A stretch of DNA of 64,000 bases from the IMG/VR virus record IMGVR_UViG_3300027844_002282, one strand, 5' to 3'. The position numbers were made by a program, and so were the translations under genes. The DNA is from a virus. Positions 2,753 through 37,106 of the stretch are shown here, piece after piece; the first letter of the stretch is position 1; each line of letters starts with the position of its first letter. The notes under the pieces were generated by a model that made no database searches, was not told the DNA's origin, and was given only the letters and a program-made list of their open reading frames with translations.

Positions 2753-2754
2753 TT

Positions 2755-4071
2755 TTACACATATTTTTCTAAGATATAACTCGGTAAAACTATTATATTC
2801 TCAACTTCATTGTCATATGTCATCTTGAGTGGAACGTCAAAATATCCATTCCTCTCTACAATTCCACTATGTATAACCTCTCCAGCTATACCGTCATATT
2901 TAGTTCCCGAATCAATGCATGTCATCAGTTTTGATTCTTGCAATGTCATCCTGTCTTTTTCAAGTGATTGTCTTATGGAATCTTCCACACCAGTCTTTGC
3001 GAACGAGACAAATGAGCAAAGCTTGGTTTCAGACTCTCCACCTTTCAACATGACATATACCTTTGTTTTGGTTCCGTCTCTCTTGTCAAATGCTAAAAAT
3101 CTATCTTTTACATAGTCCCCATTCTCTTGTGTCCCAACACTTATGTCGCCATCATTTGGTGGTTCTGGGACTATGATTATATCATCGTTTACCTTGTAAC
3201 TCGATATGGCCTTGAATATCGGATACCATAAATTGTTATAGTATGTCTGAGACATTAATGGGAACTTTGAAATCATATCTCCAAGTGGCTGGACCTTTGT
3301 CATGATCAAGCCCTTATCAAATTCAATACAGAATGGACCCTCATCAGTCGAGAAGTATAAGATATACTCTCCAGTATGCTCTCTATCTATCCCGGAAAAA
3401 GAGGTCTTAAAAGGAAGCCTTTCAATCACATCGTCGCTCATCTCAGATAGGGCTCCAGATATCCATGGAACATCTTTATTGGCCATTACCTGCATCATAG
3501 CTCCAGAGACGTTTGCTTCGAGGAAATCTCCAAAATGAGTTCTGATTTCCTTATATATTTTCTTCAATTTTCTCTTTAACTTGATCGTGTCTTTAGAATA
3601 TGGGCTCTTAACGTCGTGGTATCCTATTTCTAATATATCGATACCCTCTTTTGCATCGTTAACTGACTCGTCCGCCTCAAATTCCGCAATTGTATTAGAC
3701 ATTATTTCGGCATAATTATCTATCATGGTCTTAAAATTGTTAATTTTTGTCTTTAGACTGCCAGATTTACTATCGCCCTTCATATTCTCAATCATATTTA
3801 GGAAAGTCGTCAAAGCCATATTGAATTTATTTATAACCCTTGTTCTGATCTCATCAGGGCTAACCTTGTCTTCATAATCGGCCATTCTCGTCAGTTTGTC
3901 AGAATTCTCCCAATAGAATAGGCTCGCCTTAGAGGTCGCTTCCTGCATAGTTGGATAAGAACCCTCATCACCTATAAAAGGAAGATAATCATCTGAGCAG
4001 AACAGTTCTGTATCTGCATAAATGATTGAAAAAACGTATCCAGCATTCTTTTTATATATTTTTAGATCCAT
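2755..4071 (-). CDS. hypothetical protein co-transcribed with terminase
   Basis: 438-aa ORF with RBS AGGTG; abuts the terminase start. Confidence 0.75.
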   Translation of the reverse strand: MDLKIYKKNAGYVFSIIYADTELFCSDDYLPFIGDEGSYPTMQEATSKASLFYWENSDKLTRMADYEDKVSPDEIRTRVINKFNMALTTFLNMIENMKGDSKSGSLKTKINNFKTMIDNYAEIMSNTIAEFEADESVNDAKEGIDILEIGYHDVKSPYSKDTIKLKRKLKKIYKEIRTHFGDFLEANVSGAMMQVMANKDVPWISGALSEMSDDVIERLPFKTSFSGIDREHTGEYILYFSTDEGPFCIEFDKGLIMTKVQPLGDMISKFPLMSQTYYNNLWYPIFKAISSYKVNDDIIIVPEPPNDGDISVGTQENGDYVKDRFLAFDKRDGTKTKVYVMLKGGESETKLCSFVSFAKTGVEDSIRQSLEKDRMTLQESKLMTCIDSGTKYDGIAGEVIHSGIVERNGYFDVPLKMTYDNEVENIIVLPSYILEKYV

Positions 4072-4134: not shown

Positions 4135-4899
4135 TTAGATATGAGCTTCTACTATGGGTACTTCAATGACTTTTTCATGGAAGAATGAGTGCCCCCAGAG
4201 GCCATCCTCTCCCATACAATCCCCGTGGTCTGAACATAGAATAATATCTGTGTTTTTCATCTTCGGAGATTGAAGTAATCTTTCGATCATTTTATCAAGA
4301 TACTCTATACATCTGATCTGAGCAGATCGACACCGTTTATCACCCCAATTAATTGGCTCATCATTTTCTCGTATCCTATAACTGTGATGAGTTTCTCCAA
4401 AATTCATAAATAAGAAAAACTTCTTATCTGTAGGTAATTCTTCAAGAACATAGTCAATCTGTTTCTTTGCAACCGTGAACTCTCCAAAGAACCCGAACTT
4501 CTTAAAATCGTCAATTGCCGAAATGTGCGCTGGTTTATTTATATTGAACCATCCAACAGCACCAGTTCCAACAGTATCATACCCCTTCATATTGAATCCA
4601 TGAACAATATTTCTCCCGTCAAGTTGAACATGAGCATCTCCGGGGGACTCTGGGTTATTCAATCTCCACCACTGGCGACCATCTGTCTTCCTACCCGATC
4701 TCGCACAAGTATCGAAAGATCCACTACGTGTATGGGGTAATTTTCCAATGAAGAATGAGGTATGAGCCGGTAGAGTATATGTCCCATGTGTAAATGCCTT
4801 TTCAAATGGGAACGATTTTATTGTCGGCAAGTTAGCGTCTCTGAACGTGTCCCATCTTAAACTGTCAAAAACTATTAATGCTTGATTTCTCATTTCCAA
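4135..4899 (-). CDS. sulfatase / alkaline-phosphatase-superfamily hydrolase
   Basis: motifs DSLRWD, TLPAHTS, ETHHSY, SDHG, WGH...EVPI. Confidence 0.8.
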   Translation of the reverse strand: MEMRNQALIVFDSLRWDTFRDANLPTIKSFPFEKAFTHGTYTLPAHTSFFIGKLPHTRSGSFDTCARSGRKTDGRQWWRLNNPESPGDAHVQLDGRNIVHGFNMKGYDTVGTGAVGWFNINKPAHISAIDDFKKFGFFGEFTVAKKQIDYVLEELPTDKKFFLFMNFGETHHSYRIRENDEPINWGDKRCRSAQIRCIEYLDKMIERLLQSPKMKNTDIILCSDHGDCMGEDGLWGHSFFHEKVIEVPIVEAHI

Positions 4900-6125
4900 T
4901 TTATCTCGTGAATATCTCCATTAAAACCATGTGGCGTAACTCCAACAGGTAGATACCTCTTTAAAATCTGAATATCTTCATTTCCAAACTTCAAACCGCT
5001 CAAATCTACGGGTCTCTTCCTTACTATTACGCTTATATTATATCCATACTTTTTTACCCTCGCTAATGAACAGTCGAATCCAGCCAGGATGAGATGCATA
5101 AGGAGTAACCCAGCGTTCCACAAAGATACGTGTCCGCCAACGATCTCGTGTTTTAATGGAGGTACTGTTATGGCTAAGACCCCATCGTCGGTAAGGTCTC
5201 TGTGTATCTTCTTCAAAAATTCATTAGGACTTAATTGGTGTTCGAGAACATGAGAACACCATATACAATCGAACTTCTTGTCGAATTCATGATCACTATA
5301 GTCCCCAACTATATCGGCGTGTTTTCCATGGACATAATCTATAGAGGTAACGTCCTTTCTACACGACTTAAAAGCCGCCTTATGGTTCCCATGTCTACCG
5401 CATCCGATATCAAGTACTGATTTGAACTCGAAGTCGTTGACGAGCTTTGAAATGCATTCGTGAGAATGCATTTCAGTAAAAACAATCGGCTTTCTCTTCG
5501 TAATAATAGCTGCACTGTCAATATCTATTTTCATATCAAGAAACTTTGATATTGTATTCCATTCTTCTTTAGGGAAAGATGTGACATCTTCAAAATTAAC
5601 ATTTAGACAATCAATACCCTGATTGCTTACGTGTTCAACCATTTTATCTCTAAACCCGTTCCATTTTTCTATCCTACCCTTATAGTGCTTCGGGCTCAAC
5701 TTGTTCATCTTAGCCGAAGAAGCGGCTTGGTTGTCAATGTTTCTATGGAGAACGATGACTCTTACATCTACACCTGAATCTTTTAACTCTTTCAAGAATG
5801 GAAGGTCGTATGTTCTATATGATTTAGTCGCTACGACATCTTTGTTTTTATACTGGTTATTTAGGAATTTCTTATAGTCCTTAATATTCTCTTCACCCCT
5901 CTCTATAACACTCTCGATTGGTGGCGGGTTTTCGCAAACAAATAATTTCTTGTATATCTTCTTTATCTTATTTATGTGGGGCTCACTCTCAAAATATCCG
6001 CCTGGATTGAATTTGTCTTCAGTCTTCGTGTCCTTCACGAACGCTCCTGATTTCCTCAAAACCTTCATCATGTATGAAGACCCAATCCTCCCCATCCCAT
6101 ATGTTAATACAATCAATTTCTTCAT
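4890..6125 (-). CDS. sulfotransferase-like domain fused to class I SAM methyltransferase
   Basis: N-terminal GMGRIGSS PAPS-loop and NPGGYFE; C-terminal VLDIGCG, SHVLEH. Confidence 0.8.
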   Translation of the reverse strand: MKKLIVLTYGMGRIGSSYMMKVLRKSGAFVKDTKTEDKFNPGGYFESEPHINKIKKIYKKLFVCENPPPIESVIERGEENIKDYKKFLNNQYKNKDVVATKSYRTYDLPFLKELKDSGVDVRVIVLHRNIDNQAASSAKMNKLSPKHYKGRIEKWNGFRDKMVEHVSNQGIDCLNVNFEDVTSFPKEEWNTISKFLDMKIDIDSAAIITKRKPIVFTEMHSHECISKLVNDFEFKSVLDIGCGRHGNHKAAFKSCRKDVTSIDYVHGKHADIVGDYSDHEFDKKFDCIWCSHVLEHQLSPNEFLKKIHRDLTDDGVLAITVPPLKHEIVGGHVSLWNAGLLLMHLILAGFDCSLARVKKYGYNISVIVRKRPVDLSGLKFGNEDIQILKRYLPVGVTPHGFNGDIHEINWK

Positions 6126-7525
6126 ACCAATTTCTCCAAGAAAGAAGTTTTGTCGTCACTAATGATGATACTTATTTTACCCTTATATTTATCAAGTATG
6201 CTTCTGTACGCTTTTGTTACCCCAGGCCAAGCCTGATTTTTGTAATCGTCAATAGCGATCACTCCGCCCTTAACAACATACGGGAACATCATTCCAAAAT
6301 CAGAATTTACAGCCGCCTCGCTGTGTTCTCCATCTATATACACGAAATTAAATTTTCGCCCTTCTATTTCTTTCTTAAGCTCGCATGAGGGGATGAAAAA
6401 ATGTTTATGGTTGGATAGCTTGGAGATGTGCTCGCAAAATTTTTCTCTAAATTTACCAATATTATTAGCCCCGTCTGTATTTAATCCTCCAGAGGCGAAT
6501 TTATCATTCAGTGGATCACATGAATACAATTCCCAATTTGGGAAAAGTGACATCATCATGTTAGAGATAAAAACAGTCGTCTTCCCAGCCTTCACCCCAA
6601 TCTCACACATATCTCCAACGATGTCTTTTTTCTTAAGCGAGAAAAATATATCTGCCATATCACCCATGACTTGTTTCTGACTTTTTAGATCCTCAACCTT
6701 TTTTGCTTCCCCTATAGCATCCCTAATGATCTTATTTTTCAAAGGTTCTGGGTATACCTCGTTATAGACTTTTCCCTTCTGTCGCCGTTCATTAAGTCTC
6801 TTGAAATGGGGGACATCCATCCAGTTATCTGGCCAGACTTGTGTGGCAGTTTCAATCCTCTTGCAATTCTTAAAATGTAAGTAGCATCTTTTGTCAATTT
6901 TACTCTCAGAAGAAGAATAGTTATTTAAGACTTCGCAGAAATCACCCTGTATATAATAAGACTCCGGGCAAACCTTGAAAACCCTTGGCTCGAATGTCGC
7001 TACCAAGTCTGGACTAAAATGAGAGATGTGATCCCCACTAAGATTTATTCCATGGAAAAACGTCTTCCCAAACTTTTTGTAGTTAGAAAGATCGGCGACC
7101 ATATTTGGCGTGGCTATCATATCACCATCCCACTTACAAACAAAGGATCTACTCGTGAGGGATAAGGACCAATTATAATAGTACGCAAGATCATGTATGG
7201 AGTCTTCTGGAATATCTCTATGACCGGGGCCATTATGATGCATCTTGAAAGGATATTGATATATCTTTATTTTATCAGAGTTAATATTCCTTATAATATT
7301 TTCTGTATTATCTTCCGAGCCATTTAGTGTAACGATTATCTCATCGAAAAACCCAAGTACAGACTGAATACTTGGTAGTATAAACTCTTCTTCGTTCTTT
7401 ATCCTGATCATTGCGGAAATTCCATCTTTCCTATTCTCAAGCCAGTCTTTTTTTATAAAATACTTTTCTACCCCTTCTCTATTTTTAAGATGCATTTTAA
7501 CCTCTATAGAATGGTTCCGAACCAT
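6122..7525 (-). CDS. GT2-like glycosyltransferase fused to Methyltransf_24-type methyltransferase
   Basis: ISAMIRIKNEE, KWDGD (DxD); C-terminal EIGVKAG, YIDGEH, IAIDDY. Confidence 0.8.
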   Translation of the reverse strand: MVRNHSIEVKMHLKNREGVEKYFIKKDWLENRKDGISAMIRIKNEEEFILPSIQSVLGFFDEIIVTLNGSEDNTENIIRNINSDKIKIYQYPFKMHHNGPGHRDIPEDSIHDLAYYYNWSLSLTSRSFVCKWDGDMIATPNMVADLSNYKKFGKTFFHGINLSGDHISHFSPDLVATFEPRVFKVCPESYYIQGDFCEVLNNYSSSESKIDKRCYLHFKNCKRIETATQVWPDNWMDVPHFKRLNERRQKGKVYNEVYPEPLKNKIIRDAIGEAKKVEDLKSQKQVMGDMADIFFSLKKKDIVGDMCEIGVKAGKTTVFISNMMMSLFPNWELYSCDPLNDKFASGGLNTDGANNIGKFREKFCEHISKLSNHKHFFIPSCELKKEIEGRKFNFVYIDGEHSEAAVNSDFGMMFPYVVKGGVIAIDDYKNQAWPGVTKAYRSILDKYKGKISIIISDDKTSFLEKLV

Positions 7526-8325
7526 TTATCTAATTTATCAGACCCTACCGGGATCTGCTTATCAATAAGGGCAGCAAGTAATTTGTCAACCCTATCGGTG
7601 TGAGAATTAACATATCCTATCCCAAGAGATGTCGTGGGAGCGCCAAGCATTAAAGATTCAAGCAAGCATGTTGAATTTATCCCTATCACACGCTTAGAAT
7701 ATCTTGCTATATCTAAAAAATTTCCAGTGCTTGTCACTTTATTTTTGGCAGAACAGGTGACCTTTATTGAATTCGGGTCTAACGGGTGACCCTTGAAAAT
7801 TATTTTGTCTTCTGGATATATCCTTTCAACATAGTTAATCAACGCCTGCATCTTTTTGAAAGGGGAAAACTTCAAAATATTTGTGTCCCCCTCAAGCTGT
7901 AGCGGGCATAGTATATTCTCTCCACCGACCCAAGGTTTACCACCAATGTATTTTTTTTTGAAATCTTCTAAAGATTTAATATGTGCATCCGTTATCCATG
8001 ATAAGTCATCTGACATCAAAGATCCATGCCCATTTATACCCATAGTGTCAACAAAATAGTTCGATCTTTGCGGAAACCATCCAACCTCAACAATCCGATG
8101 CGGAATGTTCAATTTTCTACAAAGGTGTTTGATATGGCTTGTCGATTCCATTTCACCATTCCATATCATTACAAAATCATACCTCTTGCTTGTAAGCTCA
8201 GATTCTGTAATCCTCTTTCGACAAACATTTATTTCAACTATATGACCCTTGTTTTTGCAATACGATTCAAAGCCTTTAAGCCATGGACCAAAATGATCAT
8301 CGAAATAGTCATAAAACCCTACCAT
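7504..8325 (-). CDS. capsular polysaccharide (KpsS/KpsC-like) GT-B protein
   Basis: motifs IWNG, EVGWFP, PLQLEGD, KGHP, INSTCLLE. Confidence 0.7.
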   Translation of the reverse strand: MVGFYDYFDDHFGPWLKGFESYCKNKGHIVEINVCRKRITESELTSKRYDFVMIWNGEMESTSHIKHLCRKLNIPHRIVEVGWFPQRSNYFVDTMGINGHGSLMSDDLSWITDAHIKSLEDFKKKYIGGKPWVGGENILCPLQLEGDTNILKFSPFKKMQALINYVERIYPEDKIIFKGHPLDPNSIKVTCSAKNKVTSTGNFLDIARYSKRVIGINSTCLLESLMLGAPTTSLGIGYVNSHTDRVDKLLAALIDKQIPVGSDKLDKWFGTIL

Positions 8326-8337
8326 AATAATTAGTCC

Positions 8338-9051
8338 TCAAAATTTAATACCATGTTTTTTATGGAACAGATTCGAATTTCTCCCGTTGCTGCCACCCTT
8401 CTTAGCTAATTCAGAAACTTTATGATGTAGATGTCGTGTCGTCGAAAACTTATGACTTTTGCATAGTATCTTAATATTTGCTGCACGTTTAGAAAAATCG
8501 AGATCTTCGAAGCCCCAGGCTCCATCAAAGCCCTCGTCAAAACCACCAATTTTATTCCAGAGAGCCTTTGTGAAACAAACGTTACCACCATAAGCCTTGG
8601 ACCAATTGATACCAACCAATGGTTTTCCATCTTTGAAATCTTTCCTTCTCGGATCTTTTTGTTGTAGGAACTTTCCGTTCGAATTATATCGATCAGTCAT
8701 ACCAACGGAAATAACTCCTGGGTGGTGCCAGAAAACACGGTCATGACCCTCAAAGTATTTCTTTTCTGGAGCGCAATCCGCATCGAGTAAAACAATGTGC
8801 TCGTGTTTCGCGAGAGAAATACCAATATTTCTATTGCCATTCAATCTGTATTGACCAGATTGGCCACGCTGGTAGATATGGTTGAAAAAATTAGAATCTC
8901 TCGCCCAATCCATAGTTTCGTCTGTTGATTTGTCATCAACCAAAATTATCTCAAGGCATCTCTCGTTTTCACGGATTCGATCAAGGACTATCATTAAAGA
9001 TTCTAATTTATTATAGCTGCAAATAACAACGCTATACGGCAATGTGTGCAT
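8338..9051 (-). CDS. glycosyltransferase family 2
   Basis: SVVICSYN, VDDKSTD, LDADC, GGFDEGF...WGFED. Confidence 0.9.
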   Translation of the reverse strand: MHTLPYSVVICSYNKLESLMIVLDRIRENERCLEIILVDDKSTDETMDWARDSNFFNHIYQRGQSGQYRLNGNRNIGISLAKHEHIVLLDADCAPEKKYFEGHDRVFWHHPGVISVGMTDRYNSNGKFLQQKDPRRKDFKDGKPLVGINWSKAYGGNVCFTKALWNKIGGFDEGFDGAWGFEDLDFSKRAANIKILCKSHKFSTTRHLHHKVSELAKKGGSNGRNSNLFHKKHGIKF

Positions 9052-9842
9052 TACTTGGCCTCATCCGGTGGTTCATATTCAAACATACCAAGAAGTCTTT
9101 CTACGCCAATTGGAAAGTCGTCAAAGTTGTCTGGTTTTGGGAGTCCAACTTCTCCATCGTAACCTTCGCTCTGTCTTTTCTTGGCCTTGTCCGCTTGCTC
9201 TTGATACGCTGGCATTGAAGAATAAATTTTCGCATGACTAATACTTTTTTCGTCGCAATTTTTAGGGAAGACCCAGCCGAGATGATAAATTGGTTTTGGT
9301 GGCATGGTCGGCGCGACTACTGGGTCGATCCCCCCCTCAAAAGTCCAAGCGTCTCCCATGAGGGAAATGCTTGGTACGTTCCGAACCATCCGAATCGCGG
9401 CGCTGTATGCTGCGGCACCTTTTGGCAAGGGTGTCCACGATCCAATAAAGTGGTTAAACATGAATTTAACGGAGTTTACTTTCCCCTGCTTACCTTCAGA
9501 AATTCCTTTGATGAACTGCCAGTTGTCTTCGTGAATAATTTCGTCCGCCTGAAGATAGTAGACCCATTCGTGTGAACATCTTTTTAGCGCCTCTGAAGAT
9601 ACGGTAGCGATAACTTCACCGTGAGCACTCTTCTTCCAGTTAGTTCTAAAAAGTTTAACCTTTTCGGGGTGAAGGTATCTGAATTTTTCCATGTATACGT
9701 ATGTGTCGTCATCTGAGTGCCCCTCGCTGATTACGATTTCATCAGCGAAATCAAGACAAGAATTTAGAGATTCCCAAAACGGATAACCATTTCTCATCCC
9801 GTTTCTAATTACGAAACACACTGATATCCCAGGTTTTTTCAT
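9051..9842 (-). CDS. glycosyltransferase (GT-A fold)
   Basis: GYPFWES, DEIVISEGHSDD, LQADE, IYHLGWV. Confidence 0.85.
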   Translation of the reverse strand: MKKPGISVCFVIRNGMRNGYPFWESLNSCLDFADEIVISEGHSDDDTYVYMEKFRYLHPEKVKLFRTNWKKSAHGEVIATVSSEALKRCSHEWVYYLQADEIIHEDNWQFIKGISEGKQGKVNSVKFMFNHFIGSWTPLPKGAAAYSAAIRMVRNVPSISLMGDAWTFEGGIDPVVAPTMPPKPIYHLGWVFPKNCDEKSISHAKIYSSMPAYQEQADKAKKRQSEGYDGEVGLPKPDNFDDFPIGVERLLGMFEYEPPDEAK

Positions 9843-14622: not shown

Positions 14623-15462
14623 TTATCTCTGGGTTTTTAATACATAAAGCTCGGATTGTTCTCCTTTAATATTTATACATAATGTCGTTATTTCTATGTC
14701 ACAACTTGGCCCTGAAATGGGACTTGTATTACAACTAAAAACTATCGTCTCGCCTCCCCAGGCAATTATTGGCTTAAAAAACACATCTATATCCATGCCA
14801 ACTAATTCGACATTCGACTTTGGACCTCTTAAGAAATCATATCCTGACTTGTTAGCATATTTGATAATTCCACAGTTTACCACTATAGCTGGACAGTAGA
14901 TCATATCAATAACTTGATCTACAACAAGGATTGTCCTATCCTTTTCATTAAACTCTTCTTCCACGTCCCTTATAGATACAATATATCCAGAGATCCCATT
15001 CTTTACTGGGGAAACAACAATGTCCGCATGAAAGCTTTTTCCCTTGTCTCCACAAACCTCATCCTGATAGGAGCACTTAACCCCCCCCGTTCTTTCAATA
15101 CCATTGCTCAAGGCCGTGCTAAACGGCTCTCTATCTTTCCCGTCTTCAGAAGGTATAAAAATGAATTTTGAGACATGGAGCCCCTTGACCTCATTAAATA
15201 TAATACCAAACATTTTTTCAGAAGCAGGGTTTATAAAAACAATATTCTCAGATTCATCAAGAACTAAGAAGCCATCGGCAGAGGTGGATAAAATAGAGTC
15301 GGTTATCTTATATAGAGCCTTCAATTCAAAATCCTGAGAAGATATATCATTGGCCATTTTGGACAAGTCATCCAGTCTTCCTTGATTTTTTTTATGTTCT
15401 ATTTCCATGCGCTTGCTTTTCTCAACAGCATCGCCGACAAATAACTTCACAACCCAGTTCAA
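14623..15462 (-). CDS. PAS-domain protein
   Basis: DGFLVLDESENIVFINPASEKMFG...VKGLHV...IVSIRDV is a typical PAS S-box; a second PAS-like segment follows. Confidence 0.75.
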   Translation of the reverse strand: MNWVVKLFVGDAVEKSKRMEIEHKKNQGRLDDLSKMANDISSQDFELKALYKITDSILSTSADGFLVLDESENIVFINPASEKMFGIIFNEVKGLHVSKFIFIPSEDGKDREPFSTALSNGIERTGGVKCSYQDEVCGDKGKSFHADIVVSPVKNGISGYIVSIRDVEEEFNEKDRTILVVDQVIDMIYCPAIVVNCGIIKYANKSGYDFLRGPKSNVELVGMDIDVFFKPIIAWGGETIVFSCNTSPISGPSCDIEITTLCINIKGEQSELYVLKTQR

Positions 15463-16866: not shown

Positions 16867-16942
16867 GCGGACATCGTATAAAGGATAATTACCTTTGGCT
16901 TCCACCCAAATGATGTGAGTTCGAGTCTCACTGTTCGCTCCA
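16867..16942 (+). tRNA. tRNA-Gly(TCC)
   Basis: cloverleaf; anticodon arm tttgg-cttccac-ccaaa; TTCGAG; CCA. Confidence 0.9.
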
Positions 16943-16952
16943 ATTTTTTCTT

Positions 16953-17028
16953 GCGGGTATAGTTCAATTGGTAGAGCAATAGGTTTCCAACCTGTCTGTT
17001 GTCGGTTCGAATCCGACTACCCGCTCCA
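16953..17028 (+). tRNA. tRNA-Gly(TCC)
   Basis: cloverleaf; atagg-tttccaa-cctgt; CCA. Confidence 0.92.
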
Positions 17029-17286: not shown

Positions 17287-17443
17287 TAGTATTCTAATTA
17301 ATGAAAAGGAAACCTTTATTTCCCACCAAAAGGAGGATTTTGTGAGAAGCTTTCTTAAAATGACTTGACATCGACCGTTTGTGGTGTATTATAAGCACAT
17401 TGAAACAAACACATCGACATAAAAGTTTTTCGGAACGAAAGGA
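17287..17443 (+). repeat. 157-bp direct repeat copy 2 (promoter of the 17459-19238 cassette)
   Basis: appears identical to 16389-16545. Confidence 0.95.
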
Positions 17444-17458
17444 GAACGATGAGAACAA

Positions 17459-18277
17459 ATGAAAACTTACTGCATAATCGGTGCCTACGAGTATAATGGC
17501 AGTGCTCGTGATGCGATAGTCGAATACTTTTGTATGCAGGGGGTCGATGGCTTGGTTGTCGTTGATCATAGAAGCCAAAGACCGGCTAGCGACGAGATAG
17601 GGAATGCCGATGCTTGGATGTATCTATGCAGTGCTGCCTGTTCTGCTGGGATGGAGGTGATTTTTCAGTATCACGAATTACCGCGAAGCATAGACCAAGG
17701 ACGAATCGAGAAGATCGTGTCTACTGGGTGCGGCAAGATAAGTATCGGGAGCGCAGAAACTACAGAATGGGTCGGCTCTCACGAGTTGGCGGAAGAAAAC
17801 ATTGAGATTGGCAAGCGCATGGGTTTCGAGTGGGTGTGCGGCATAACGCCGAGGACGATCCTAATGGATTTACTTACTCGTAAGCGGAGAGAAGTTCTCG
17901 TCAGGAATAATGTCTTGTGCCTTACCCTTTCTCCCTATATCCTGTGGGGGTATATGTTTGCTGACGAGCGATTCCCCCATCAATGGGAAACCACGCTGGC
18001 GGGAAAGAACCTTCATGTCGAGTACGGTCTCACGCCGGAAAGACTTGCTGACTACGTTGAGCCACTTGACATAATGGCGGGAGTGGGATCACAGGTGGGT
18101 CTTGATGCCGGTAGCGCAGTATATGCCAAGATGTTAAACTTCAAGGGTTTGGTGATCTCGCTGCCGTTCGATCTGACGGGTGTGTTCGACACCTCAGTAA
18201 GAATGTCGCCTCCGGGCAGCTACCCGACTATTTGTGGGAATTTTGAAGAGGGAGGATACAGGAATGCCTATGCGTGA
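17459..18277 (+). CDS. hypothetical protein
   Basis: 272-aa ORF right after the duplicated promoter/RBS; higher GC than flanks. Confidence 0.7.
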   Translation: MKTYCIIGAYEYNGSARDAIVEYFCMQGVDGLVVVDHRSQRPASDEIGNADAWMYLCSAACSAGMEVIFQYHELPRSIDQGRIEKIVSTGCGKISIGSAETTEWVGSHELAEENIEIGKRMGFEWVCGITPRTILMDLLTRKRREVLVRNNVLCLTLSPYILWGYMFADERFPHQWETTLAGKNLHVEYGLTPERLADYVEPLDIMAGVGSQVGLDAGSAVYAKMLNFKGLVISLPFDLTGVFDTSVRMSPPGSYPTICGNFEEGGYRNAYA

Positions 18278-19238
18278 CGGGATCGTGCTGAGATTTATTC
18301 CGGGGGTCACTTATTCTGTCGTCATTTTTCATATTGGTCACATGACCACGATGATGTGCAATTTTCTTTACGCGAAAAAGCATCATGGTATCTGCTATAT
18401 TGCGCCAGAGATAAGTACAATCGGGTTAAACGGAGCGGGGTTTATAAGACCGTACCTGTCGATAAGTGGCTATCGAACAGATACTTCTCTCAGGCTGTTT
18501 GGTAATCTGGGTATCCCGGAAGTACTGATAAGACCGATTCCAACATACTGGGGTGGCTTAGAGCTACGCCAAGAGATGAGTAAAAAACTTCATGCAGAAA
18601 CTGGAGCATCGATTAGCCAAATATTGGATGAATTCCCGAAGGCTGATATCAGTAGTTCGATAGTCGCTGTTTTTGATTTTCTCTTGGGGTCGAATGTCAT
18701 AATTCGCGGTGGTGATTGGAAGGGCATTGTAGATCCCCATATCCGTGCTTCGACTTATGTAGAGACCCATCGAGCGATCCTAAATTATTTAAGAGGGATA
18801 GTCGGTCAAGGTCCGATTACGGAACACTTCGCACCACTAGTTCTTTCGGACGGAGAGAAGATATCCAAGTCAGCCATTGCTGACATGGGAGAAGACCCCG
18901 TAGTAGTATTCCGAGAAGGGGGATGTTCGACGGAAAATGCCCCCGGAATTTCCCCTCTGGCGTATCTGGTATGGATGGCTGGAAAGGTTGGAGAGGATCT
19001 TAGGTCGATTGATGATTTTGTCAATTATTATCAGCTTTTCGACATCGAGGCTGTTCCGGAAGAGCTTGATTTTGTATTGGATGACCTGCTCAATGCCGAC
19101 GAGGTTGTCAAAAAAGCGTTCGGTCATACATCGAGTAGCGGCGATGACTTGGTGAAACACCTTGCTGTTTTCAGCGATGCTTTAGGGGTTAGTCGGGTCG
19201 ATGGCGTTTACGAGGATACTATAATTTGTAATTTTTGA
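18264..19238 (+). CDS. divergent class I aaRS catalytic domain (GluRS/GluQ-like)
   Basis: LRFIPG...FHIGH...CNFLYAKKHHG, IIRGGD, HFAPLVLSDGEKISKS (HIGH and KMSKS equivalents); RBS GGAGG before ATG 18264. Confidence 0.7.
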   Translation: MPMRDGIVLRFIPGVTYSVVIFHIGHMTTMMCNFLYAKKHHGICYIAPEISTIGLNGAGFIRPYLSISGYRTDTSLRLFGNLGIPEVLIRPIPTYWGGLELRQEMSKKLHAETGASISQILDEFPKADISSSIVAVFDFLLGSNVIIRGGDWKGIVDPHIRASTYVETHRAILNYLRGIVGQGPITEHFAPLVLSDGEKISKSAIADMGEDPVVVFREGGCSTENAPGISPLAYLVWMAGKVGEDLRSIDDFVNYYQLFDIEAVPEELDFVLDDLLNADEVVKKAFGHTSSSGDDLVKHLAVFSDALGVSRVDGVYEDTIICNF

Positions 19239-19454
19239 ACTTTTACAGAATGCATGGGATGAGCCTATTTCAAAGGTGGAAATAGAATTGTCCCCTGTGG
19301 AAAATAAGGATGCATCATCTATCCTGATTATAAAATATGCATAAATACTTTGAAAATGTTGGCGAAACCGGAAGTCATGACTCAGTGGAAACCCTCCGGT
19401 AACTCTCACCGACAGAAAACAAGAGAGCAATAGGCCTGGGCGGGAAAAATAGAT

Positions 19455-19532
19455 GCAGACTGTAGTGTTAGTAGCTCAGCACACTTGATTGTGGCTCAAG
19501 TAGGGGCGGTTCGAATCCGCTCAGCCTGCCCA
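19455..19532 (+). tRNA. tRNA-His(GTG)
   Basis: cttga-ttgtggc-tcaag; G-1:C73; CCA. Confidence 0.9.
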
Positions 19533-19549
19533 TCTTTTGCTGTATAATA

Positions 19550-19636
19550 TCCAGTGTAAACCGTAATGGCAGCGGAACGGACTGTTAATCCGTGACATTT
19601 TATGTCCTGTAAGTTCAAGTCTTACCTCTGGAGCCA
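19550..19636 (+). tRNA. tRNA-Asn(GTT), long variable arm
   Basis: acgga-ctgttaa-tccgt; extra hairpin gacat-ttt-atgtc; GCCA end. Confidence 0.88.
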
Positions 19637-19646
19637 ATTTTATAAT

Positions 19647-19721
19647 AGGTCTGTAGCTTAGTTGGAAGAGCTACTGTCTTCTAAGCAGTTGGTCCGGGCT
19701 CGAATCCTGGCAGGAGCGCCA
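19647..19721 (+). tRNA. tRNA-Arg(TCT), weak acceptor stem
   Basis: actgt-cttctaa-gcagt; CCA; acceptor stem has mismatches. Confidence 0.7.
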
Positions 19722-19827
19722 GTCGCTCTATACGTCTCGTACCAAGCCGAGTGCAAACGGTTGGGATGTACCCGCAAGGGAAATTTTGCAACCGGATGGT
19801 ACCCGGCTGGACGAGCGCATTTTATTT

Positions 19828-19904
19828 GCCCCCGTAGTTCAATTGGATAGAGCAATAGTTTTCTAAACTATCTTGTGTAGGTTCGAGTCCTACCGGGGGT
19901 ACCA
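19828..19904 (+). tRNA. tRNA-Arg(TCT)
   Basis: atagt-tttctaa-actat; canonical D and T arms; CCA. Confidence 0.92.
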
Positions 19905-19915
19905 TTTCTCAAAGA

Positions 19916-19989
19916 GGGTCCGAAGCATTAAGGTGAGGCAATGGGTTTTTACCCTATGGAACAGGGATCATTACCCTGCGGGCCTACCA
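19916..19989 (+). tRNA. tRNA-Lys(TTT), non-canonical T-loop
   Basis: atggg-tttttac-cctat; T arm caggg-atcatta-ccctg; CCA. Confidence 0.8.
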
Positions 19990-20003
19990 ATTTTCAAAAC
20001 AGC

Positions 20004-20032
20004 TTGACTTTTTTCAAAAGCAGGTTATAATA
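20004..20032 (+). promoter_or_regulatory. sigma70-type promoter within tRNA array
   Basis: TTGACT ... TATAAT. Confidence 0.75.
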
Positions 20033-20044
20033 CACTTAACAGAT

Positions 20045-20116
20045 GCCTACGTAGCTCAACTGGAAGAGCACTTCGCTACGAAGAGGTTGCAAGTTCAAAC
20101 CTTGCAGTGGGTACCA
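20045..20116 (+). tRNA. tRNA-Arg(ACG), anticodon stem shortened (possibly defective)
   Basis: cttcg-ctacgaa then 3' stem strand missing bases; CCA. Confidence 0.6.
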
Positions 20117-20120
20117 TTTT

Positions 20121-20265
20121 GATAATGTGGCGGAATTGGAATACGCGCCGCTGTAATAGCGGTAGAGAGCAATGGGTTCAACTCCCATTTAAGGTACGGT
20201 TACCGCTTGGCTGTAATAGCTAAGGCAATGTCTCCTTGTGGGTTCGAGACCCATCATTATCATCA
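20121..20265 (+). ncRNA. tRNA-framed RNA with expanded variable region
   Basis: acceptor gataatg/cattatc, Leu-like D arm, T arm gtggg-ttcgaga-cccat; ~75-nt insert. Confidence 0.7.
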
Positions 20266-20275
20266 AAATTTAGAT

Positions 20276-20365
20276 TGCGGGTAAATCGACTGGCGTAGCA
20301 GATAACTGGCTCATAACCAGGGAGGGGCAACCCTTAGGTCGGTTCAATTCCGACACCCGCTACCA
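20276..20365 (+). tRNA. tRNA-Met(CAT), long variable arm, 1:72 mismatch
   Basis: ctgg-ctcataa-ccag; extra hairpin aggg-gcaa-ccct; CCA. Confidence 0.8.
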
Positions 20366-20461
20366 TTTTAACTATGATAAAATATGAAATCAGATAGAGA
20401 TATGGATGTAGAGTATACAAAAACCCAACTCGTTATTTTTGGGATATATGAGATTTAATGT

Positions 20462-20557
20462 TGTGAGGATTGATTGAAAGTACTATGCTTTCATCAGGAA
20501 AACTGTAAAGTTCCATGGACTTAGCGGCTGGAGGTTCGACGCCTTCTCTCACAGCCA
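20462..20557 (+). tRNA. tRNA-Tyr(GTA)-like with hairpin inserted in D-loop
   Basis: acceptor tgtgagg/tctcaca; loop ctgtaaa; T arm ggagg-ttcgacg-ccttc; CCA. Confidence 0.6.
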
Positions 20558-20558
20558 T

Positions 20559-20638
20559 AGCGGAAGAGTGGATGTGGATACATAGACCATACCAGCCTCA
20601 TAAGTTGGAGATTGCAGGTTCGACTCCTGCTTCCGCTA
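20559..20638 (+). tRNA. tRNA-Met(CAT), no encoded CCA
   Basis: agcggaa/ttccgct; ccagc-ctcataa-gttgg; T arm gcagg-ttcgact-cctgc. Confidence 0.82.
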
Positions 20639-20837
20639 GATTAGTATAATGACAAGCCTCCACGTGGCACTAATCGGAAACGAACTAACCCTCGGCTAAT
20701 TTGTCATTAATAATATCCGTAATTATCATCAAATATTTCTTCGCCCCATCGGTCTTGAAATATCCAAAAGAGGAGGTGTCGATAATACACAAGGAAATTC
20801 CATGGTTAATACACGATCCCATTAATTTTCGAATAGG

Positions 20838-20955
20838 TTGTGACTAAGGCCCGGTAAAGCCGGGTGCCGATCACTTACTAAGGCCTCAGCCCGTAAGTGC
20901 CGGGCGGGAACACAGAGGCTCTACCCCCGAAGATAACCAAACTTTGAGTCACAAT
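20838..20955 (+). ncRNA. pseudoknotted structured RNA of unknown class
   Basis: closing stem ttgtgact/agtcacaa, GC hairpins, cacttac complementary to loop gtaagtg. Confidence 0.6.
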
Positions 20956-21121
20956 ACTTTTTCCTTGGAGATAATATGGAAGATAAAATACACCCGCTGG
21001 TTGGACAATCGTTCAAAGTTGAATGGTGGATTCGAATCCCACTTGGTCCACCAATTTATTACAGGGATTTCTTTCGAATAATTAGAAGTATTAGCTCAAC
21101 CCACAACAATAGGAGGGTAAT

Positions 21122-21409
21122 ATGAATAAGAACAAAATCATCGGGACACTAATGGTGGCTCCGTTACCGATTTATCTCGTCTATCTTCTTTTGGCAAAAG
21201 AGATTTTGCCGATTGTCATTTGTCTTGCGGCTGGAGTTGGATTATTCCACTTCGGACTCAAACTTTTGACAGGATCAACACTCGAAGAGGTCGGCGAAGA
21301 TGTTGTCAGACATCTCGACGAGGTTGAGGAAGAAGCAGAAGAAGCAGTTGATAAGATTAAGAAAAAGACAAGGAAGCCAAGGGCGAAGAAGGCTGTTAAA
21401 AAGAGTTGA
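21122..21409 (+). CDS. small membrane protein
   Basis: two hydrophobic helices, basic tail, RBS GGAGG; AGG-N19-GAA motif at 21063. Confidence 0.7.
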   Translation: MNKNKIIGTLMVAPLPIYLVYLLLAKEILPIVICLAAGVGLFHFGLKLLTGSTLEEVGEDVVRHLDEVEEEAEEAVDKIKKKTRKPRAKKAVKKS

Positions 21410-21532
21410 CGGATAGGGTATGTTAAAATGACCGACGACCATTCTTCCCCACGGGGAAGTAGCTATTACATACGTTGAGGGATTGGATACGAGACCAATA
21501 CGTGAGTTTCACAAGATGGCAAGTCAATTTTT

Positions 21533-21609
21533 GGATCGGTGGCGCAATTAGGTAGCACAGCAGACTTTTAATCTGTGGGTTGTGGGTTCGATTCCCACCC
21601 GATTCACCA
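21533..21609 (+). tRNA. tRNA-Lys(TTT)
   Basis: gcaga-cttttaa-tctgt; CCA. Confidence 0.92.
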
Positions 21610-21700
21610 GCTTGATTGACAGGGTCTCGCAGACCGTACCAATAACAAAAGCAAATATCTTAATCTATGCCACCTGACATTTTATTTTTACGAGGAGCCA

Positions 21701-22009
21701 ATGAATAATTTAACGGAAGAAAAAATATTTGACGAGTTAAGACCAATATTAGACCCTGATCTTGGAATAAGCATTGTAGATATGGGTTTGATATATAAAG
21801 CCAAGATAAATGGAGATCATGTTGATGTTGAAATGACATTAACATCTATTGGATGTCCATATGGTCCATATTTAATATCTGAAGTAACAGAAACAGTCAA
21901 AAATATTGATAGTATTAAAACGGTAAATGTAGAACTCGTTTGGGAACCACCTTGGTCGATTGAAAATTTGTCAGACGAAGTTAAATTAGATATTGGAATA
22001 GACATCTAA
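21701..22009 (+). CDS. DUF59/SufT-family metal-sulfur cluster assembly factor
   Basis: DPDLGISIVDMGLIY, MTLTSIGCP, VELVWEPPW. Confidence 0.92.
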   Translation: MNNLTEEKIFDELRPILDPDLGISIVDMGLIYKAKINGDHVDVEMTLTSIGCPYGPYLISEVTETVKNIDSIKTVNVELVWEPPWSIENLSDEVKLDIGIDI

Positions 22010-22069
22010 ACCGGTTGCAAGTTCGATTCTTGCCTGGAGAGATAATTTTCAACAAGGGTATTTTTATTT

Positions 22070-22148
22070 GGCCTTAGCTCATGTTGTGGCTTAGAGCGCC
22101 TGTTTTGCAAGCAGGAGGTAGTGGGTTCGATGCCCACAGGGGCCACCA
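22070..22148 (+). tRNA. tRNA-Ala(TGC)
   Basis: cctgt-tttgcaa-gcagg; CCA. Confidence 0.85.
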
Positions 22149-22156
22149 ATTTTTAC

Positions 22157-22561
22157 TTAAAGTCCAGCCAATCCCCTAAATAAACGCATGGCACCAATTC
22201 TATCACCCGCGAAATTACCCTTTTGGTCATCTGGGCCAACAAAAAACCAGTAATCTCTGAATCTGTCGGTTGCAATTTCACCGAGGATCTTCCTGATCTG
22301 GGTGTGAGAGATATCTTGAGAAAAGGTCGCCTCAAAATTTTCCGCGAAGAATGTCAACCTACACCAGCCACTTGCGATAGCATTATAGCCAAGGGTGAGA
22401 CTGTCAAAGGGCATTGGAAACGATTCAGAACCAATCTCGTCTTCAGAAAGGTATTCTGCTAAAGCTTTCTCATGTCCCTGGAAATCATTTACGGGGACTT
22501 CTCCACCATCAGGGTCTATCCATAACCCATAAGCCCCTTGAGATTTTTTGTACCAATTCAT
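22157..22561 (-). CDS. hypothetical protein with MNWYKK leader
   Basis: 134-aa ORF starting MNWYKKSQ. Confidence 0.7.
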   Translation of the reverse strand: MNWYKKSQGAYGLWIDPDGGEVPVNDFQGHEKALAEYLSEDEIGSESFPMPFDSLTLGYNAIASGWCRLTFFAENFEATFSQDISHTQIRKILGEIATDRFRDYWFFVGPDDQKGNFAGDRIGAMRLFRGLAGL

Positions 22562-23303
22562 ATTTTGTCCATATCAAAATTTCTATGCTCAGTTGGGGAA
22601 ACGCCGGAGCGCGTAACTCCGCCCCTCTGGGCTCCTTTTCAACGAAGAGTAAGCATTAAAGAGGTACTGTCACAATTAGATGTACAATAAACTCAGTCCA
22701 CATCCCTCTCATATAACAATGACAGCATCGAGGTAAATATATGAAAAACTATGAAGAAATGAGCTGCGAAGAGCTTCGCCAAAACAGGAAAAAATAGTAT
22801 GGGGCTACTTAGCGCTATTTGTAAAGGTTGCAAGAAAAATATTGAACATTTTAGTTTCGACAATGACATCACCTGTAGAGGATGCGGAATTATAAATGCT
22901 TCAAGTGAAATTCAGCTTTCGACCTTAAGCTACGGAAAGGGACGTGAAGACGGAAAAGACTCATCATCCAGATGGCTTAAATCTTGGATGAACAATAGAG
23001 AAAAACATAATTCATTAGAAGATTGGTATAATGCACTATATAGTATTGTTTACAAAACCAAAAAGTCGCCGCCAAAATTCAAAACTAAAATATCCCTACA
23101 CGCATCAAACCTTCTTTTAAATATGGCAAGGCTTAAGAAAGAGGGGATGGGCGACGAGAAACACGACTATATGTGCGAAAAGATTTGCGATGTTATAATA
23201 GACGCAGAAGATTGGGAAAAAGAACATGATATAGAATCATAGTGGGAATAAATGGTGACAACATGACAAAAAGAATCGTAGTAACGAACAAGAGATAATC
23301 ATA

Positions 23304-24030
23304 ATGCAATGGGACTCAGTATACATGCCAAACTCAGCTTATCCCCCGCACGTTGGACATGCGGCAATGATCTTACACGCAAGAGCGAGCTTTCTCTACA
23401 CAAAATTTTATTTAGAATCTTATAACACGCCTGGAATCGATCTTAGATGGGGGGTCGTTCATGATGTTCGCTCAACACCAGAGTTTGAAAAAATGCAGGT
23501 TGATCTTATGAATTGGATGGGATACCCACCGGAATTTGAATTGCGACTAAATGAATATGGGAATTTTCAAGCCGACGTGATGTGCATGTTGTTAAAGATG
23601 GAAATTCGAGAGGCCGATTTCAAAAGCCTTGAAATTGGGAAGTTTATGGTTCTAAACTCAGTAAGAACTCACATAAGGGGGGTGGGACCTTGTTCCGTTA
23701 GAAAAAGTAGAGAGGCCATTGGCGGGCGCTTTTGGATTCGGCTACCCAACAATAAGATACGCCCCATTATTATTAGACAATAATGGCGAAAAGATATGCT
23801 CTAGTAAAAGCGAGCATAAAAAGTTTCAACTAACTCAAGTAACTATGGATTCAAATGGGCCAGACAGTCTGATTGAAAAGCTATTAAAATGCCACTGCCC
23901 TGACGCGGAACATGTGAGAGGCGAAGACCCTGACGAAATAGCGATCAGATGGTGTAGAAAACTATGGACGCATTACCATGGATTAGCTTGTCTTGGACAG
24001 CCAATGACGCCAATAAAATTTAACTTATAA
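23304..24030 (+). pseudogene. second divergent GluRS/GluQ-like domain, split by a frameshift
   Basis: PHVGH and HIRG in 23304..23783; YAPLLLDNNGEKICSSK in overlapping frame 23719..24030. Confidence 0.55.
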
Positions 24031-24033
24031 AAT

Positions 24034-24110
24034 GCCGATGAAACATTTATATGGATGATGTCCTGTCTTGTAAGCAGGTTAACTCGGATCGTTACCGAGC
24101 TTCGGCTCCA
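24034..24110 (+). tRNA. tRNA-Thr(TGT)
   Basis: cctgt-cttgtaa-gcagg; T arm ctcgg-atcgtta-ccgag; CCA. Confidence 0.85.
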
Positions 24111-33420: not shown

Positions 33421-34407
33421 ATGAACGGTGAACCTCTCGTATTTTCTGGGCGTTCCAACGAAAAGTTGGCAAAAAGCGTTGCGCGGTATTTATCGATTCC
33501 ACTTGGCAACAGATTTATCAAGCTTTTTGAAAGCAATAGCAACCGGGGGGAAATACATGTCGAATATAACTGTAACCTCCGAAAACGAGACATTGTCATA
33601 ATCCAAACCATCTTCGATCCAGTGAACGATGACTTAATGGAATTGCTCGTCATGATCGATTGTGCTAAGAGGGCAAAGGCAAAAAATATCACCGTAATTA
33701 TTCCTTATATGGGATACTCAAGACAGGATCGCAAAGATAAGCCAAGAGTTCCCATCACATCAAAGTTGGTGGCTGGACTTATTGGGTATGCGGGGGCAGA
33801 CGACGCTCTTCTCATAAACTTACATGCTCCACAAATCGAGGGGTTCTTCGATATTGGTGTCGATCACATTTCATGCACCAAGATTATGGTGGAAGAACTT
33901 CTTAAGACGATTGGCAAATGCCCCACAGAAGACATTGTAATGGTCGCTCCAGACGAAGGCGCTGGAAAGATTGCCAAAGAGTACAGAAAGTTCGTTCCAG
34001 GATCAAGATTGGCTGTAATATCAAAAACCAGACATAGCGGAACAAACACGACATCTGACTTCATCATGGGAGAGGTTGACGGTAAGGTCTGTGTTCTTGT
34101 AGACGACTTGACCTCGACTGGTGGCACCTTGATCAATGGGGCGGAGTTGCTTATGAAAAAGGGGGCAACAAAAGTTTATGTTGCTGTCGCTCATGGCTGC
34201 TTTATCAACAATGGAAAAATCAAGAGCTATGAAAATATTGAAAATAGTTGTATCGAAAAAGTTTTGGTGACAAACTCTATTGACGTAAAGAAAAGTCCAA
34301 AAATTAAAATCGTAAACCTTGGAAAATTAATCGGAGAGTGTGTCCTTAGAGCTAACGACGGAAGGTCGATTTCGGATCTCTTTTCTTCACCGGAGGACGA
34401 CGAATGA
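33421..34407 (+). CDS. prs: ribose-phosphate pyrophosphokinase
   Basis: PYMGYSRQDRK, LHAPQIEGFF, VAPDEGA, VDDLTSTGGT. Confidence 0.93.
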   Translation: MNGEPLVFSGRSNEKLAKSVARYLSIPLGNRFIKLFESNSNRGEIHVEYNCNLRKRDIVIIQTIFDPVNDDLMELLVMIDCAKRAKAKNITVIIPYMGYSRQDRKDKPRVPITSKLVAGLIGYAGADDALLINLHAPQIEGFFDIGVDHISCTKIMVEELLKTIGKCPTEDIVMVAPDEGAGKIAKEYRKFVPGSRLAVISKTRHSGTNTTSDFIMGEVDGKVCVLVDDLTSTGGTLINGAELLMKKGATKVYVAVAHGCFINNGKIKSYENIENSCIEKVLVTNSIDVKKSPKIKIVNLGKLIGECVLRANDGRSISDLFSSPEDDE

Positions 34408-35386: not shown

Positions 35387-35995
35387 TCAAGCGTAAGCTT
35401 TGGTCTTCTCTTCTGACGCATGAATGTAATCGATTGAAACTTTCGGCACCAACTTGGTGTAATCGAAAAATATCCATCTCTTCATGTCCTCAACCACTTC
35501 GTCTTCATTAACATGTCTGAGGTATTCATTTATTTCATCCCAGGTGCTAAACATGTGCTCATCCGGGATCATACCAAACATCCAGTCGGGAATTTCGCTC
35601 TTCCCCTGTTTGCAGTGTATGAGGACGGGGTTCTTCATCCTGTTGGCCCAACTAATCTCTTCATGGGTTCCACAAGTTGGTATTGAGGTATCGAGATTAA
35701 CAATTAAGAAGTCGGCCATATCGACCATTCTAAGATCAACGATTCTCACCTTTTTCATTTCACTGGCAATCGTTTTGTAATCCCCATCTTCTTTTAATTT
35801 AGTCCTATACTGAAGACACTCTATATCCAACCCGTCCTCAAGGTCAATGGGCTTGTCGCATGGGTTAAGAACAACAATCCCCATCTTTTCGAGTATATCA
35901 CCTTCCCACACCCGCCATTCCGCGCCCTGATCGGGGGCCTTGTCCATCGCACCCGACAAGTAGCATCTCATTCCCCATAACCTGTGATTTTTCAT
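35387..35995 (-). CDS. nucleoside 2-deoxyribosyltransferase-like (NDT superfamily) protein
   Basis: YLSGAM, VLNPC, DLRMVDMAD, GTHEE. Confidence 0.7.
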   Translation of the reverse strand: MKNHRLWGMRCYLSGAMDKAPDQGAEWRVWEGDILEKMGIVVLNPCDKPIDLEDGLDIECLQYRTKLKEDGDYKTIASEMKKVRIVDLRMVDMADFLIVNLDTSIPTCGTHEEISWANRMKNPVLIHCKQGKSEIPDWMFGMIPDEHMFSTWDEINEYLRHVNEDEVVEDMKRWIFFDYTKLVPKVSIDYIHASEEKTKAYA

Positions 35996-36593: not shown

Positions 36594-37106
36594 ATGAGGA
36601 AAAATATAACAATTTGGTTTACCGGAATCCCGTGCAGTGGGAAAACAACCTTGGCATTGTCTTTCAAGAGAGAGTTAGAGACTCTTGGCCACAAGATTGT
36701 CCATTTAGATGGAGATAAATTAAGAGAGGGTTTATGCAAGGGCCTGGGGTTTTCTAACGAAGGGAGAAAAGAAAATTTGAAAAGGGTAGCTCACGTTGCA
36801 GAGTTACTGAACCAGGAAAATATTATTGTATTAGCAAGCTATGTTTCCCCAACTGAGGAAATGAGAGATGTGGTTAGAGAGATCGTTTCAGATCTAAACC
36901 TAATCCATGTCGATTGTTCACCAGAAGAATGCGCCAATAGAGACGTTAAAGGGATGTGGAAGAAGGCTAAAGATGGAGAAATCAAAGGATTCACTGGATA
37001 CGATGCCCCGTTTGAGCAGCCAGTTGATGCCGAGTTAACAATAAATACAAACGACTTGACATTAACGGAATCTATCGGTATATTATTAAACCATTTTAAC
37101 TCATGA
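36594..37106 (+). CDS. cysC: adenylyl-sulfate (APS) kinase
   Basis: WFTGIPCSGKTT, LDGDKLR, RDVKG, FTGYDAPFE. Confidence 0.95.
   Translation: MRKNITIWFTGIPCSGKTTLALSFKRELETLGHKIVHLDGDKLREGLCKGLGFSNEGRKENLKRVAHVAELLNQENIIVLASYVSPTEEMRDVVREIVSDLNLIHVDCSPEECANRDVKGMWKKAKDGEIKGFTGYDAPFEQPVDAELTINTNDLTLTESIGILLNHFNS

Follow-up and report, generated by a model that had tools for sequence, protein, structure and literature searches.

What does a phage do with the catalytic core of a glutamyl-tRNA synthetase (GluRS) that stands alone, and to which acceptor would it pass an activated amino acid? This question is raised by a 64,000-nucleotide stretch of DNA from a large uncultured marine phage (IMG/VR record IMGVR_UViG_3300027844_002282; hereafter the window), in which a preliminary description, made from the letters alone, had placed two highly diverged GluRS/GluQ-like catalytic domains in an array of tRNA genes. 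The intact gene is ORF2 (open reading frame 2; 18264..19238, plus strand), which encodes a 324-residue stand-alone GluRS-type catalytic core with FHIGH, IIRGGD and KISKS motifs, and the second, here called copy 2 (23304 to 24030), carries PHVGH, HIRG and KICSS across a frameshift; all of these motifs were found where they had been described. Our analysis demonstrated that the ORF2 family is a rare lineage of stand-alone aminoacyl-tRNA synthetase (aaRS) catalytic-core paralogs with no prior description found in the literature, as a literature search returned no paper on such a GluRS-like family and only work on GluQRS, general aaRS studies and a huge-phage survey of host-related synthetases.

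The homology of ORF2 to GluRS and its class I aaRS fold, with bacterial GluRS as the nearest relative, can be considered close to certain. Compared alone to PF00749 (tRNA-synt_1c), ORF2 scored 20.1 bits, below the 23.4-bit cut-off, and in a phmmer search of PDB sequences its HIGH and KMSKS regions matched GlnRS and GluRS at E values of 0.015–0.07. An exhaustive phmmer search over 1.84 billion representative proteins identified six ORF2 relatives only. Each of the seven members of the resulting family alignment (A1) matched PF00749 (best E 1.3e-8), and one of them, L012_346, scored 35.2 bits and lies above the cut-off. The A1 profile matched 41 PDB sequences, all of them GluRS, GlnRS or GluQRS, with Helicobacter pylori GluRS as the best match (E 6.9e-9) and GluQRS reaching only E 0.15. 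Profile-profile comparison with hhalign gave 94% probability to E. coli GluRS (E 1.4e-7, 122 columns) in an alignment that begins at VVDD, takes in IRGED and KLSKR and reaches the stem-contact fold, in comparison to 4% for E. coli GluQRS.

Structure prediction agreed with this assignment. ORF2 is laid out as a Rossmann fold, a short CP insertion and a stem-contact fold, and its AlphaFold2 model (pLDDT 62.9, pTM 0.69) placed GluRS at the top of the Foldseek ranking, aligning to GluRS residues 1 to ~345 only and ending before the anticodon-binding domain. A non-aaRS HUP protein or a model with no Rossmann fold, the outcomes set beforehand as refuting the assignment, was not obtained. The earlier view of both genes as GluRS/GluQRS-type cores lacking an anticodon-binding domain was borne out, but the joint GluRS/GluQ label needs narrowing, as profile comparisons place the family closer to GluRS itself than to GluQRS. 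The catalytic core shared with bacterial GluRS (GltX; M. tuberculosis 2ja2/3pnv, T. thermophilus 1j09 and E. coli 8i9i) shows an identity of only 13–19%.

The start of ORF2 is most likely the ATG at 18264, which has a GGGAGGA Shine-Dalgarno sequence 7 nt before it and was also chosen by gene callers on other contigs; the ortholog P0002 starts two residues later. The window's DNA recurred, with 0–2 differences per 10–17 kb, in several independently assembled metagenomes, on contigs as long as 153,618 bp. As judged from nucleotide comparisons, ORF2 is a functional gene under purifying selection, because dN/dS against its 79%-identical ortholog on contig L007 was 0.28 and all three single-nucleotide polymorphisms in ORF2 and the overlapping upstream gene ORF1 among the population contigs were synonymous (3/3).

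The ATP motifs of ORF2 are intact, with a canonical H-I-G-H and both lysines of KISKS. In T. thermophilus GluRS, Arg5, Asp195 and Arg205 form a strictly conserved network that recognises glutamate, and GlnRS has Cys in place of Arg5 (PMC2978374). The ORF2 equivalents of this triad are R10, D138 and R148, which are invariant across the family (by MAFFT alignment, and for D138 and R148 also by hhalign) and have an Asp–Arg spacing of 10 residues, as in GluRS. They belong to 21 invariant columns in A1 that also include F11, P13, H23, G25, G149, D151, K199 and S201. The earlier suggestion of an adenylating enzyme would therefore fit ORF2 in that both its ATP motifs and its glutamate triad are kept, and glutamate-type adenylation by ORF2 is rather probable. 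The reported lack of a canonical RIED(T)D motif was also correct, as ORF2 has YIAPEI at the RIEDTD position, which is variable across the family.

The proteins could alternatively be non-catalytic binders or decoys on a GluRS fold, which would soak up a host factor targeting GluRS, for example HipA-type kinases phosphorylating the KLSKR serine, or would sequester tRNA. HipA is known to inactivate GluRS (PMC7029023), and a degenerate KMSKS occurs in several paralogs (KISQA, KLSSS, KVSHS and KICSS). ORF2, however, keeps all checkable catalytic signatures (HIGH, KISKS and the triad), and as these are invariant family columns the pattern points to catalysis and not mimicry, making the decoy function very improbable.

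While keeping the glutamate- and ATP-holding residues, the ORF2 family has shed or remodelled the parts that engage tRNA. The anticodon-binding domain is absent, with ORF2 stopping at residue 324 and no open reading frame lying between 19238 and the tRNA-His gene at 19456. The CP insertion comprises 83 residues (between E49 and I133) in comparison to 141 in E. coli GluRS, and no invariant Cys or His cluster was present in the CP segment of the family, whereas in GluRS a zinc knuckle normally adjoins the CCA-binding region. ORF2 thus differs from GltX by the loss of the anticodon-binding domain, RIEDTD and the zinc knuckle and by its shorter CP, and its family additionally has its own insertions after IRGxD and KISKS, sets of paralogs and a companion gene.

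These losses bear on the possibility that ORF2 is a genuine minimal GluRS, which would charge host or phage tRNA-Glu or tRNA-Gln without reading the anticodon and top up Glu-tRNA during infection. Bacterial GluRS are its nearest structures, the triad and ATP motifs are intact, and huge phages carry aaRS genes, including GluRS, which like ORF2 are phage-borne translation-type genes beside tRNA arrays (PMC7162821). The huge-phage enzymes, however, are described as host-related and were recognised by TIGRFAM models, whereas the ORF2 family lies at or below the Pfam threshold without a tRNA-reading domain, and ORF2 by its PF00749 score is far more diverged than such host-like synthetases. RIEDTD is lost and the CCA-end-binding CP is remodelled, two to three paralogs together with a conserved companion would be unexpected for a housekeeping synthetase, and no tRNA-Glu or tRNA-Gln gene was found in the window. 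A minimal charging enzyme is accordingly a highly unlikely reading of ORF2.

To our knowledge, GluQRS is the only stand-alone GluRS paralog of known job, and it offers the closest comparison. GluQRS/YadB (4a91, 1nzj) and ORF2 are both GluRS-type cores without an anticodon-binding domain, but GluQRS keeps a full CP with a Cys cluster and the RIED motif, which the ORF2 family does not, and there is no specific sequence kinship between them. GluQRS is a glutamyl-queuosine tRNA(Asp) synthetase, and by analogy a tRNA activity could be conjectured for ORF2. In that case ORF2, possibly with ORF1, would activate glutamate without tRNA and attach it as an ester to a modified base or ribose of certain tRNAs. 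Its targets could be tRNA-His(GUG) and tRNA-Asn(GUU), two Q-family tRNAs whose genes closely follow ORF2, or the unusual tRNA-like RNAs in the island, and the change could alter decoding or guard the tRNAs against anticodon nucleases.

The setting of ORF2 speaks for such a modification. The tRNA island spans 16.8–29.4 kb and holds at least 17 tRNA or tRNA-like genes, with two tRNA-Gly(TCC) genes (16867..17028, plus strand) immediately 5' of the ORF1–ORF2 operon and tRNA-His(GTG) and tRNA-Asn(GTT) (19456..19636, plus strand) 218 nt 3' of ORF2. The GluRS-like pair of contig L012 likewise has a tRNA-His(GTG) nearby, the phage encodes a CCA-adding enzyme (59648-61246, minus strand), an RNA ligase (48571-49230, plus strand; PF09414, E 4.6e-25) and a Tpt1/KptA RNA 2'-phosphotransferase (58859-59545, minus strand; E 7.3e-44), and the GluQRS precedent and the retained stem-contact fold are two further arguments for tRNA. 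The profile and hhalign comparisons nevertheless set ORF2 apart from GluQRS, the CP is shortened with its zinc knuckle gone, the loci of three relatives lack tRNA genes, and no queuosine genes were detected when the window was scanned with Pfam models. The island also contains no tRNA-Glu, tRNA-Gln or tRNA-Asp, which weakens both a true GluRS and a classical GluQRS reading. Net charge and pI fail to separate tRNA binders, the E. coli GluRS core being as acidic as ORF2. Overall, tRNA modification by ORF2 is possible and rather doubtful. The ties to tRNA modification, anticodon shielding or atypical tRNA-like RNAs proposed in the preliminary description found no backing beyond gene position in this one phage; the relatives in L007, L009 and L010 are without nearby tRNA, and the CP is reduced from ~141 to ~83 residues with loss of the zinc knuckle.

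The distribution of the family bears on the same point. Members of the ORF2 family are very scarce, and all those seen are on metagenomic or viral-type contigs, whose G+C content in the relatives ranged from 29% to 55%; they often occur as two to three paralogs beside the companion. One locus (L009, 339-3070) has three GluRS-like paralogs, only one with a full KISKS, and another (L012, 4983-9139) has a tandem GluRS-like pair, 74% identical, converging on two companion copies within a 472-kb contig that also encodes TnpB, an FtsH-like protease, tRNA-Val and tRNA-His. On the marine phage-like contig L007 the ortholog (1951-3183) lies directly downstream of genes for a PhuZ-type tubulin, a 5'-3' exonuclease and RecA, and in L007 and in L015, a further family fragment from JGI metagenomes, it follows the tubulin gene with no ORF1-like neighbour. 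No tRNA genes were found in L007, L009 and L010, and tRNAs occurred near family members only in the window and L012. Searches with short patterns or tblastn returned no relatives in IMG/VR and GTDB species genomes, where absence is weak evidence, and among INPHARED phages, an equally weak negative, only marginal HIGH-region matches in two huge phages.

ORF1 (17459..18277, plus strand; 272 residues) overlaps ORF2 by 14 nt and follows a sigma-70-like promoter candidate (TTGACA-16-TATTAT, 17365..17392, plus strand; 11/12, a consensus match only). No Pfam family and no PDB sequence relative was found for ORF1. Its own ESM Atlas model (pTM 0.69) matched diverse TIM barrels (TM 0.55–0.64), an Atlas feature search gave glycoside-hydrolase-like barrels at 0.82–0.83, to be taken as leads only, and an AlphaFold2 model built on alignment A2 was poor (pLDDT 41). 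From the Atlas matches ORF1 is probably a (beta/alpha) barrel.

The earlier proposal that ORF1 is a partner of ORF2 is plausible, because relatives of ORF2 adjoin a conserved companion protein. This companion family (alignment A3, ~300 residues) directly adjoins the GluRS-like genes in L008, L009, L010 and L012, the last with two copies, and in L008 and L009 it lies upstream of and overlaps the GluRS-like gene, the same arrangement as in ORF1–ORF2. The family had no Pfam, PHROG or PDB match, and an ESM Atlas search with companion L010_296 gave low recognition and was uninformative. ORF1 showed a weak BLAST match to companion L008_299 (E 7e-5) over a conserved C-terminal G..P..Y..G..G block, in which the A2 invariant residues of ORF1 are G190, P193, Y199, G208 and G230. 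Homology of ORF1 to the companions was, however, not confirmed by profile methods.

Our preferred reading is that ORF2 would adenylate glutamate to glutamyl-AMP or, as the canonical RIEDTD is lost, would adenylate a closely similar dicarboxylic acid instead, and would then transfer the acyl group without choosing its acceptor by anticodon reading. A non-tRNA acceptor is the likelier one, for instance a sugar or a sugar-nucleotide on which ORF2 would act together with ORF1, the barrel-like protein co-translated with it, and the location of ORF2 in the tRNA island would then be incidental. The leaning arises because the anticodon domain is lost, the CCA-side CP is remodelled, a partner that does not look like an RNA-binding protein is conserved and no steady link to tRNA exists. 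Most aaRS paralogs of known role act on non-tRNA targets, such as MshC, PoxA and AsnA. MshC-type ligases are the analogy behind a sugar-type acceptor; MshC (8hfn) is a CysRS-like cysteine:GlcN-Ins ligase of a CysRS-derived subfamily, unlike ORF2, and the only pointers to a sugar acceptor for ORF2 are its barrel-like partner and a sugar cassette some distance away.

This cassette (4138-9842, minus strand) is of a glycan type and lies beside the terminase and an SMC/AAA gene. It comprises a sulfatase/phosphodiesterase-like gene (4138-4899), two methyltransferases (4890-6125 and 6122-7525), a capsule-synthesis-like gene (7507-8325), a GT2 gene (8341-9051) and a weak GT2 match (9054-9842), all on the minus strand, and its link to ORF1–ORF2 is suggestive only.

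Several observations weigh against a non-tRNA acceptor handled with ORF1. The stem-contact fold is kept in ORF2, and the residue at the RIED glutamate position varies in the family, so that the activated acid may not be glutamate. The sugar cassette lies ~8 kb or more from ORF1 on the other strand, and no sugar genes were found in the relatives' loci examined. Both GluRS-like copies lie inside the tRNA island, the stop of copy 2 falling 3 nt before tRNA-Thr, and the tRNAs of L012 lie 2.5–6 kb from its GluRS-like pair. Profile methods did not establish homology of ORF1 to the companion family (E 7.3 with hmmsearch, 4% with hhalign), and L007, which carries the nearest ORF2 ortholog, has no ORF1-like neighbour. 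Moreover, the sole characterised stand-alone GluRS paralog that we know of, GluQRS, acts on tRNA. With these points included, the whole chain from adenylation to a non-tRNA acceptor handled with a barrel partner is put forward only tentatively and falls somewhat short of an even chance, and it is favoured over tRNA modification, the rather doubtful alternative.

The status of copy 2 is a separate matter. Its 0-frame part (23304..23783, PHVGH to HIRG) ends in an out-of-frame tail of 35 codons past a G6 run (23677..23682) at which the frame shifts by +1, and its +1-frame part (23677..24030, GWDLV through KICSS to the stop) provides 117 open codons, all on the plus strand; tRNA-Thr(TGT) (24034..24110, plus strand) begins 3 nt past the stop. 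When AGGG is read as one step a 241-residue product (P0008) results, which aligned to P0010, an intact 258-residue homolog of copy 2 found elsewhere, without gaps across the junction (46% identity, E 2e-63; HIRGWDLV in comparison to HVRGLDLV), and this read-through restores the invariant IRGxD aspartate. The P0010 DNA at the junction reads CGA GGG CTG GAT, and copy 2 in the window therefore has one G in excess of what an open gene needs.

The G6 run was identical in six of six independent assemblies (L001–L006), which ruled out an assembly slip. Copy 2 is a remote relative of the ORF2 family, yet it aligns collinearly: hhalign gave 86% (E 4.6e-6) from IRG to KISKS, across the junction, and for the HIGH block 38% (E 3.4e-4), and BLAST matched copy 2 to L012_346 (7.6e-4), while HMMER alone did not tie it to the family (E 0.39) and only profile-profile comparison did so.

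Copy 2 and P0010 both carry KICSS and have no residue equivalent to Arg5 or to Asp195; of the triad, copy 2 keeps only the Arg205 equivalent. Judging by these residues, the copy 2/P0010 subfamily, even when whole, probably does not bind glutamate in the manner of GluRS. Copy 2 would thus represent a catalytically degenerate paralog that was recently broken in this phage population by a one-G insertion. As two of the three triad residues are gone and the gene is frameshifted, full-length copy 2 is probably not produced in useful amounts, and in this phage it probably does not work as an enzyme; the original view of both copies as enzymes would fit ORF2, with its signatures intact, and probably not copy 2.

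Alternatively, copy 2 may be kept alive by +1 ribosomal frameshifting or by polymerase slippage on G6, an idea whose likelihood is independent of that of any acceptor. The step proposed is that peptidyl-tRNA-Arg slips from AGG to GGG in A-AGG-GGG-G, perhaps tuned by the phage tRNA-Arg(CCU) (27273-27346). In line with recoding, the +1 frame stays open for its full 117 codons at 46% identity to P0010, equal to that of the part before the run, the read-through alignment is gapless with the aspartate regained, and all six assemblies, which come from different samples, carry G6. Those six contigs, however, differ by 0–2 bases in 10–17 kb and are one clone, which leaves the shift without evolutionary depth. 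The AGG codon is frequent (10 per 1000), and AGG GGG occurs in-frame in four other genes, including the terminase, which therefore makes the site no obvious shift signal. No stimulatory RNA structure was detected downstream of the shift site (z 0.12), and gain of one base in a homopolymer is the commonest route to a broken gene. Recoding is thus considered unlikely, and a broken copy 2 is the favoured interpretation.

The surrounding window contains further genes of a large phage, among them a terminase large subunit (1001-2752, minus strand) and a peptide deformylase (43702-44328). The RNA ligase, Tpt1/KptA and CCA-adding enzyme form a tRNA-care set that suggests mending of cleaved tRNAs. A DUF59/FeS_assembly_P protein (21701-22009, plus strand; E 6.9e-15) lies inside the island between tRNA-Lys and an Ala-like tRNA, and a 279-residue PAS-domain protein (PAS_9, E 3.6e-13; 14623-15462, minus strand), unusual in a phage, lies just upstream of the island. 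A pair of paralogous open reading frames (44956-45642 and 49262-49969, plus strand) shares 34% identity over 236 residues (E 5.5e-38), the second lying directly 3' of the RNA ligase gene. Also present are a phosphoribosyl pyrophosphate synthetase (33421-34407), a nucleoside 2-deoxyribosyltransferase-like protein (35387-35995, minus strand), an adenylylsulfate kinase (36594-37106, E 5e-53) and a cupin/mannose-6-phosphate-isomerase-like protein (50842-51303, minus strand).

A broader scheme that joins these elements would be an undescribed phage two-part acylation system, in which GluRS-derived ligases, one active and the others degenerate, act with a barrel partner and glutamylate a target different from the tRNA-Glu 3' end, either a glycan or sugar nucleotide or position 34 of Q-family tRNAs, while the level of the phage tRNA-Arg(CCU) would govern a +1 shift at A-AGG-GGG-G that yields copy 2. 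We regard this scheme as improbable. Some defence systems signal by tRNA cleavage products (PMC13692257). If the scheme were true, a glycan or sugar nucleotide target would decorate the virion or host surface, and glutamylation at position 34 (His, Asn) would blunt anticodon nucleases or defence that uses tRNA cleavage products.

In summary, the ORF2 family adds to GluQRS another lineage of stand-alone GluRS paralogs, one that is independent of it and far more diverged. If ORF2 does attach glutamate to a sugar, a nucleotide or a tRNA base, this would add a new entry to the short list of non-translational class I synthetase reactions and would also provide a new phage tool for infection.

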